From the NCBI RefSeq assembly GCF_048403405.1, contig NZ_CP183129.1: a DNA stretch of 64,000 nucleotides; one strand, written 5' to 3'. This document shows positions 2,833 through 4,481 of this stretch, piece after piece. This stretch comes from Escherichia coli (lineage in GTDB: Bacteria; Pseudomonadota; Gammaproteobacteria; Enterobacterales; Enterobacteriaceae). Within the stretch, counting starts at the first letter, position 1, and every line of letters begins with the position of its first letter. The translations under genes and the position numbers were made by a program. Below the pieces are notes generated by a model. It searched no databases and was not told the origin of the DNA. It was given only the letters and a program-made list of their open reading frames with translations.

Positions 2833-3942
2833 GTGGCGACATTAACCCGGCTTTTTATTCATCCTGTTAAATCGATGCGCGGCATTGGTCTTACACATGC
2901 CCTGGCAGATGTCAGTGGTCTGGCCTTCGATCGCATCTTTATGATCACGGAACCTGACGGTACGTTTATTACCGCTCGCCAGTTTCCCCAGATGGTACGG
3001 TTTACTCCTTCACCTGTGCATGATGGCTTGCATCTCACCGCACCAGATGGCAGTAGCGCATATGTTTGTTTTGCTGATTTCGCCACACAAGACGCACCAA
3101 CCGAAGTTTGGGGCACACATTTTACCGCGCGAATTGCGCCAGACGCGATCAACAAATGGCTAAGTGGATTTTTCTCCCGCGAAGTGCAGTTGCGCTGGGT
3201 GGGGCCACAAATGACGCGGCGCGTGAAACGCCACAACACTGTACCCCTGTCATTTGCTGATGGCTATCCTTACCTTCTTGCTAACGAAGCCTCGTTACGT
3301 GATCTCCAACAACGTTGTCCGGCCAGTGTAAAAATGGAGCAATTCCGCCCTAATCTGGTGGTTTCCGGCGCGTCCGCCTGGGAAGAAGATAGCTGGAAAG
3401 TGATTCGCATTGGTGATGTGGTATTTGATGTGGTTAAACCTTGTAGCCGCTGTATTTTCACCACCGTCAGCCCAGAAAAAGGGCAAAAACATCCGGCAGG
3501 CGAACCATTAAAAACATTGCAATCTTTCCGCACTGCCCAGGATAACGGCGATGTCGATTTTGGTCAGAATTTAATTGCCCGTAATAGCGGCGTAATTCGC
3601 GTTGGCGATGAGGTGGAAATTCTGGCAACGGCTCCGGCTAAAATTTACGGCGCAGCCGCCGCTGATGATACCGTCAACATCACGCAACAACCGGACGCAA
3701 ATGTAGATATTGACTGGCAGGGACAGGCATTTCGTGGAAATAACCAGCAGGTGTTGCTGGAGCAATTAGAAAATCAGGGAATTCGTATCCCTTATTCTTG
3801 CCGCGCGGGCATTTGTGGAAGTTGCCGTGTTCAGCTTTTAGAAGGCGAAGTCACGCCGCTGAAAAAATCAGCAATGGGCGATGATGGCACCATTCTTTGC
3901 TGTAGCTGTGTACCGAAGACTGCACTTAAGTTGGCGCGTTAG
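2833..3942 (+). CDS. ycbX: MOSC-domain protein with C-terminal 2Fe-2S ferredoxin domain
   Basis: 369 aa ORF from GTG; C-terminal [10 protein letters not shown] ferredoxin-type cysteine motif; divergent from rlmL. Confidence 0.9.
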
Positions 3943-4481
3943 ACTGCCTGTTCTAGGCTGAAGCTGTCAACATTCACCTGCGGTTTCAGCCTGTCGTTCA
4001 TGATTTTAATGGCGTCGCCCAACTGCATCGCGCGACCCGCAATAACAACGCAGGGTTGGGCTAGCAGACATAGCGCGGCATTTTCGCCAGATTCAACGAC
4101 CAGCAAATTGACTTGCTCGTGAGTATCGCTCAACCAAACGCAGGCCGCATCGCCCGGCATGGGCACCCACATTTCTCCATGGGAAACAAAATGCCAGCTT
4201 TTCGGCATTTGCGGTTTGAGATAACGAATTGCTACCAGTGCATTCAGCACCAGTTCGGCTTTTTGTTCTTTAGATAAATTAAAATCGCGGCACTTTTCTT
4301 CAAACGAGAAATAGAGCGCAGCATCGTCAACGCAAAAGCCTGCGGGAGAAAAGGCATCTGGAGTCAACATTTTGCGCGCAAAACGTGAGCGAAATAGCAT
4401 ACCATTGGCTAAATCGAGCATCATTCGATCGTGCTCTTCATCGTAATACCAACGCCAGTTATCGTCTGGTTTAATTCGCAT
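3939..4481 (-). CDS. zapC: Cell division protein ZapC
   Basis: 180 aa from internal Met of track ORF 3939..4517 ([24 protein letters not shown]...); stop overlaps the ycbX stop on the opposite strand. Confidence 0.88.

Follow-up and report, generated by a model that had tools for sequence, protein, structure and literature searches.

A near-fixed four-nucleotide stop-codon overlap of convergent ycbX and zapC in Escherichia coli, with Rho-limited read-through and a conserved stem-loop beyond the ycbX stop

The genes ycbX and zapC of Escherichia coli run towards each other and overlap at their stop codons, which raises the question of where transcription of each gene ends and whether the overlap has any consequence for either. 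The window analysed here is a stretch of 64,000 nucleotides from one strand of an E. coli genome (contig NZ_CP183129.1, assembly GCF_048403405.1); positions below are window positions unless another sequence is named, and the features under discussion are collected in Table 1. An earlier note on this DNA had claimed that the two stop codons share two base pairs, that no terminator intervenes, and that convergent transcription through each other's 3′ ends could give antisense interference between a cell-division factor and a MOSC-domain gene.

The first of these claims is confirmed by the sequence, the open reading frames, and the RefSeq annotation. The plus strand reads cgT TAG ac at 3937-3945, and the two coding sequences have 4 nt in common, TTAG, of which positions 3940-3941 belong to both stops. 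The ycbX product is the 6-N-hydroxylaminopurine resistance protein, with the Pfam architecture MOSC_N, MOSC, and Fer2 (2Fe-2S ferredoxin); that of zapC is the cell division protein ZapC, composed of ZapC_N and ZapC_C. The Pfam domains extend as far as residue 362 (of 369) in YcbX and residue 168 (of 180) in ZapC, and the ZapC tail past residue 168 is variable. Because the overlap contains only the stop codons and the wobble bases of the last codons (3939 for ycbX and 3942 for zapC), there is essentially no amino-acid conflict between the two frames. RefSeq annotates the identical 4-nt overlap in strains TUM14771, AML001_par, and MG1655 (in the last, zapC 1005952-1006494 on the plus strand and ycbX 1006491-1007600 on the minus strand). 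The window is 100% identical to TUM14771 over 3400-4600, AML001_par is an E. coli genome at 98.3% identity, and the junction region was found in 5425 of 5426 complete E. coli genomes. The zapC frame is open further upstream to a GTG at 4517 (192 aa); this longer entry in the open reading frame list is not the annotated zapC, for which most orthologues have the length given in Table 1.

Table 1. Features at the ycbX-zapC junction, in window coordinates
Feature	Position	Strand	Basis	Remarks
ycbX	2833..3942	+	ORF list, RefSeq annotation, Pfam	stop TAG at 3940-3942
zapC	3939..4481	-	ORF list, RefSeq, Pfam	start ATG 4481, 180 aa; stop TAA, the complement of 3939-3941
TTAG tetramer with both stop codons	3939..3942	.	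sequence and alignment of 81 sequences	
Conserved RNA stem-loop	3954..3993	+	folds and alignment of 81 sequences	14 bp, 12-nt loop in E. coli
Interrupted stem-loop in zapC 3′ untranslated RNA	3851..3884	-	fold	within ycbX Fer2-domain codons
Rho termination region peak, zapC strand	3776..3792	-	PMC7815308	K-12 1006647(+) = window 3786, inside ycbX
Rho termination region peak, ycbX strand	4393	+	PMC7815308	K-12 1006040(-), 451 nt beyond ycbX stop
3′ terminus, ycbX strand	~4502	+	PMC10687069, Supplementary Data 3, LB RNAtag-seq sheet	K-12 1005931(-)

The geometry is ordinary, being the standard one for abutting convergent genes. Only the four-base sequences CTAA, TTAA, CTAG, and TTAG can nest two opposed stop codons, and it is because only these four do so that convergent overlaps peak at 4 nt (Lillo & Krakauer, 2007, PMC2174442). 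ycbX and zapC lie on opposite strands, share exactly 4 nt, and do so in a permitted tetramer; as in other members of this class, any terminator must lie in the partner's coding sequence, and nothing essential sets the pair apart from a plain member. That survey counted 58 convergent overlaps in E. coli, 21 of which have a predicted intrinsic terminator within the partner gene.

The register of the overlap is near-fixed across the Enterobacteriaceae. Both stops were located in each of 80 species loci with ZapC, which together with the window make up 81 sequences; 74 of these species share the exact 4-nt register, and this retention identifies it as a stable inherited state and not a coincidence of one strain. 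Among the 81 sequences the tetramer is TTAA in 60, TTAG in 8, CTAA in 7, and CTAG in none, so that the variants seen are exactly the changes that preserve both stops. Mutational constraint is the simplest explanation for this near-fixation, with no need for selection for the overlap itself: the overlap persists because T↔C at 3939 and A↔G at 3942 are the only changes that leave both stops intact. Small insertions gave the six species lacking the overlap their spacers of 6-70 nt.

The homologue search returned only ZapC relatives of at least 74% identity, and more distant ones were reached by a representative-protein search and contig look-ups. One relative at 60% identity keeps the synteny pyrD-zapC> <ycbX-rlmL, with an 8-nt spacer; in another, at 44% identity (GCA_964016415.1, locus L089, 3044-3081), the zapC-ycbX spacer is 38 nt; and in three further distant relatives ycbX is not adjacent to zapC. 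Within the 38-nt spacer is a perfect GC-rich hairpin of 10 bp, ACCGCUUACC GGG GGUAAGCGGU, which, judged by its sequence, would take the place of the embedded element as a conventional terminator-like structure between the genes. Within E. coli itself, strain TW10573 (NZ_CP127035.1, locus L092, 2047-3013) has the 3′ part of zapC replaced by IS1A; its zapC is annotated as a pseudogene without the C-terminus, and its ycbX is lengthened to 392 aa. This disruption means that at least one natural strain can do without the junction and ZapC.

Where transcription ends can be read from published transcript data, all of which come from K-12, 98.3% identical to the window. An indel-free megablast alignment of 1201 nt allows direct conversion of coordinates (window position = 4481 + (1005952 - K-12 coordinate)). 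On the zapC strand, Term-seq places a 3′ end at 1006586(+), window 3847, 92 nt beyond the zapC stop and classed as 'antisense ycbX' (Adams et al., 2021, PMC7815308). The same study compared direct RNA-seq in the presence and absence of bicyclomycin and identified a Rho termination region on each strand; scores were taken over 800-nt windows, so the peaks are imprecise. For 1006647(+), coverage upstream and downstream of the 3′ end was 159/33 without bicyclomycin and 179/269 with it (supplementary file 2), giving a Rho score of 7.24 (p = 1.1e-24); for 1006040(-), classed as 'antisense zapC', the corresponding values were 91/23 and 72/79 (supplementary file 2), with a Rho score of 4.34 (p = 7.4e-8). 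A study that lists 3′ termini from RNAtag-seq (the TRS study, PMC10687069) adds the ycbX-strand terminus at ~4502, which lies 560 nt downstream of the ycbX stop, passes the zapC start by 21 nt, and has neither hairpin nor U-tract. Such a terminus implies antisense RNA over the full length of zapC; the RNA that ends there could also have its start not at ycbX but at an unmapped promoter within zapC, and a consensus scan found no sigma-70-like plus-strand promoter inside zapC, which is weak negative evidence. Additionally, zapC-ycbX is among the 165 convergent excludons of MG1655 called by ExcludonFinder, a listing that denotes detection in half or more of 58 RNA-seq samples (PMC12288877). The SMRT-Cappable-seq supplements hold no entry for zapC or ycbX.

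These published K-12 data show that the read-through is real: polymerases from both sides traverse the overlap and are stopped by Rho within the partner gene. The earlier proposal that each gene is transcribed through the other's 3′ end is thus borne out by the Term-seq end, the two Rho zones, the ~4502 terminus, and the excludon listing, and the published 3′ ends of the two genes do not both fall upstream of the overlap. The companion statement that no terminator intervenes holds in part. A consensus pattern scan found no terminator-like site at the junction, where no GC-rich stem is followed by a U run and the tails are U-poor (CUUC at the zapC 3′ end), and an intrinsic terminator at the junction can be ruled out on these grounds; the absence of an intergenic terminator is trivially true, since no intergenic DNA exists. 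What the statement misses is that Rho terminates on both strands, that a conserved stem-loop lies shortly after the ycbX stop, and that hairpins sit just within each partner gene.

A simple scan of 2500-5000 returned 12 terminator-like sites of hairpin plus T-run, as compared with 3.1 ± 1.8 in shuffled sequence; several, among them the minus-strand sites 3792-3776 and 3760-3744 downstream of zapC, lie in coding sequence on the antisense strand. The Rho peak on the zapC strand coincides with one weak terminator-like hairpin from the pattern scan, AGGGAUACGAAUUCCCU followed by GAUUUUCU. Further along each of the two RNAs, windows of 80 nt downstream have a C/G ratio of about 1.1-1.6, a modest bias weakly compatible with Rho loading.

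Further from the junction, the pyrD terminator hairpin lies at 4601-4622 on the minus strand (CAGGGCUUUAUUUUAAGCCCUG, then a U-rich tail), and the published primary pyrD 3′ end (K-12 1005843) falls just after it. As pyrD ends at its own terminator, zapC must have its own promoter in 4482-4600, where the consensus scan identified none. On the other side, ycbX with its promoter region is reported to be preferentially transcribed by sigma-S RNA polymerase in vitro and to show weak rpoS dependence in vivo (PMC3141248). In the divergent intergenic region between ycbX and rlmL (2590-2832), the only strong sigma-70-like site found by scanning, 2796-2769 on the minus strand, points towards rlmL. A published 3′ end in the rlmL 5′ UTR (K-12 1007800, window ~2633 on the minus strand, 44 nt upstream of the rlmL start) adjoins a hairpin at 2611-2626, GCCUACUGCGGUAGGC; end and hairpin together may represent a premature-termination or leader element. 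A sub-threshold Rfam match to sX9 (E 0.053) overlaps this hairpin and is probably due to chance.

On the zapC strand, the Term-seq end at 3847 sits 4 nt after the base of the interrupted stem-loop at 3851-3884, with no U-tract. This element is a local one: 61.7% of its cells (one base pair in one sequence) pair across species, and it is unconserved beyond Escherichia and Citrobacter. RNAalifold recovered no consensus structure in the zapC 3′ RNA from the family alignment and, together with this pairing rate, the absence of predicted pairs rules out a conserved structure there.

The ycbX strand yields a different picture. The stem-loop at 3954-3993 starts 11 nt past the ycbX stop, in ycbX 3′ untranslated RNA, and is antisense to zapC codons 163-176. 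Across the 81 sequences, 84.1% of its cells can pair, as compared with 30-46% when partners are slid by 1-3 columns, and 102 cells carry a change in each partner, where the slid controls have 9-40, counted per sequence and not per evolutionary event. When hairpin templates were slid over 1.3 kb of the same alignment, this one ranked first of 8834 (84.1%; mean 37.0, sd 10.0), and the templates ranked next have the same axis of symmetry. Every third pair links two zapC wobble positions; at one pair of such synonymous sites, 3963-3984, the combinations are G.U in 19 sequences, A-U in 30, G-C in 28, and A.C in none (Fisher p = 1.3e-8, phylogeny ignored). The structure is biased towards the ycbX-sense strand, with 84% paired against 68% and a mean of -20.5 against -13.4 kcal/mol, and the ycbX-sense version is the more stable in 78 of the 81 sequences; on this asymmetry, assignment of the hairpin to the zapC-sense RNA is rejected (fold z-score 0.08). 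The stem-loop is kept in all six species without the overlap, which points to the hairpin, and not the overlap, as the selected element. A search of 2500-4800 against Rfam gave no family, just two sub-threshold chance matches.

In form, the element resembles the stable stem-loops without U-tracts just after which Rho-dependent transcripts end (Dar & Sorek, 2018, PMC6061677). Both strands at ycbX and zapC show bicyclomycin-sensitive read-through; the zapC-strand end follows a stem-loop lacking a U-tract at a distance of 4 nt; and a stable hairpin, likewise lacking a U-tract, follows the ycbX stop with a Rho zone downstream. The likeness covers hairpin and mapped end for zapC and the hairpin for ycbX, and both elements differ from the published cases in lying inside the opposite gene's coding sequence. 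From its sequence and conservation, we infer that the stem-loop at 3954-3993 may act as a protective or pausing 3′ hairpin of a Rho-terminated ycbX mRNA. The published 3′-end tables, in the parts covered here, map no end at its base; the minus-strand entries in the covered part of the Term-seq list have at least ~23,000 reads and the plus-strand entries go down to ~850, and a weak ycbX end could be missed (PMC7815308).

These observations are, with good probability, to be read as a neutral tail-to-tail overlap locked by constraint, in which read-through is obligatory, Rho terminates transcription, hairpins set the 3′ ends, and complementarity of the two mRNAs is a by-product. The overlap would have its origin in the ability of the complement of one stop (TTA or CTA) to nest with TAA or TAG, in two genes that would be unrelated and independently transcribed. 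With no intergenic DNA between them, each polymerase passes its own stop into the partner gene; the RNA made there would be untranslated, allowing Rho to load, and the published bicyclomycin data show for both strands that transcription ends within a few hundred nucleotides. Steady-state 3′ ends would then probably be set by stem-loops that block 3′-5′ exonucleases: the local hairpin at 3851-3884 would set the zapC end at 3847, and the same role is proposed for 3954-3993, within the last zapC codons, in the ycbX mRNA. The two mRNAs would consequently be complementary over at least ~100 nt, potentially over most of zapC.

A second reading, partly compatible with that of a constraint-locked overlap and in our view rather doubtful, takes 3954-3993 to be the ycbX terminator itself, either a weak intrinsic one or a 'bidirectional terminator element' that positions polymerase collisions, such that most ycbX transcripts stop no more than ~55 nt from the overlap and the antisense RNA over zapC is a minor leak. 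The stability, conservation, and strand specificity of the stem-loop would suit such a role, as would the 21 of 58 E. coli convergent overlaps with a predicted intrinsic terminator in the partner gene (PMC2174442). A weak pointer in the same direction comes from the portion covered here of a rifampicin time series, which lists ycbX 'Termination' on the minus strand at 1005775 (window ~3881, in what is presumably version NC_000913.2) at a resolution of 50 nt. However, the stem is followed by UCGUUCAUGAUUUUAAU, a poor U-tract, U makes up only 4 of 8 nt in its tail UCGUUCAU, and no call is made by the consensus scan; moreover, transcription downstream is bicyclomycin-sensitive, and another 3′ end is mapped 560 nt downstream of the ycbX stop. 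Bidirectional terminators driven by collision (Ju et al., 2019, as cited in bioRxiv 10.1101/2022.10.23.513370) share with this locus the convergent pair, the boundary stem-loop, and the lack of a canonical U-tract, and stem-loops are required to position the collisions at them. Yet the described terminators reportedly act without Rho and give sharp 3′ ends that overlap between the genes, whereas termination at ycbX and zapC is bicyclomycin-sensitive, with ends 92 nt and 450-560 nt inside the partners. The bicyclomycin sensitivity and the mapped end positions therefore argue against a bidirectional terminator of the collision type.

Because its mRNAs are complementary, the pair falls in the class of convergent excludons (PMC12288877), and a functional reading of that assignment would have zapC and ycbX antagonize each other's expression, by head-on collision of polymerases, by RNase III cleavage of the duplex, or by both; ZapC would then fall when ycbX, which is weakly sigma-S dependent, is induced, and the converse would also hold. 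We regard this as unlikely. The transcripts do overlap in the K-12 data, the ExcludonFinder call was made for zapC-ycbX explicitly, ycbX is reported to be weakly rpoS-dependent (PMC3141248), and the zapC-ycbX arrangement is conserved, as is consistent with the greater synteny of excludon pairs as a class over non-excludon pairs. However, the defining trait of an excludon is mutually exclusive expression or RNase III processing, and zapC-ycbX is placed in the class by transcript overlap, an overlap forced by overlapping coding sequences and not by long 3′ UTRs; with overlapping reading frames, any expressed pair passes the coverage criterion automatically. The authors of that study state that validation of convergent excludons by dsRNA is not feasible and that p19 dsRNA capture is uninformative (PMC12288877). 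Stop-codon constraint alone accounts for the conservation of the overlap, which has been lost six times by small insertions, and IS1 disrupts zapC in one strain; the low read counts on both strands (~90-180 per 800 nt) further imply that collisions would be rare.

More speculative still, and in our estimation very improbable, is that 3954-3993 and the Rho-limited read-through form a selected control point, at which raised ycbX transcription or lowered Rho activity, as in stationary phase or stress, would extend antisense RNA over all of zapC and yield less ZapC. If true, the control point would tie a base-analogue detoxification gene to Z-ring stabilization. An annotation artefact, in which one stop is not a real gene end and there is no true overlap, has in its favour only the general fact that short overlaps can stem from misannotation, and is rejected: stop positions, unlike starts, are unambiguous, homology runs to the frame ends with stops at the same positions in 80 species, and the Pfam domains extend close to both C-termini.

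For a constraint-locked overlap, much of what is described here is already known: the overlap is annotated, its class was described in 2007, the pair is a listed excludon, and read-through and Rho termination have been measured genome-wide. The overlap as such therefore matters little. What is new is the conserved, covarying ycbX 3′ stem-loop in the zapC coding sequence and the fixed 4-nt register across the family, so that the added value is modest and comparative, consisting of the near-fixed register and of a covarying structure of one gene embedded in the synonymous sites and variable C-terminal tail of the other. In this respect, ycbX and zapC provide a clean small example of RNA-level constraint put on one gene by its convergent neighbour, and they are well placed for testing the model by which the 3′ ends of Rho-terminated mRNAs are defined by protective hairpins.
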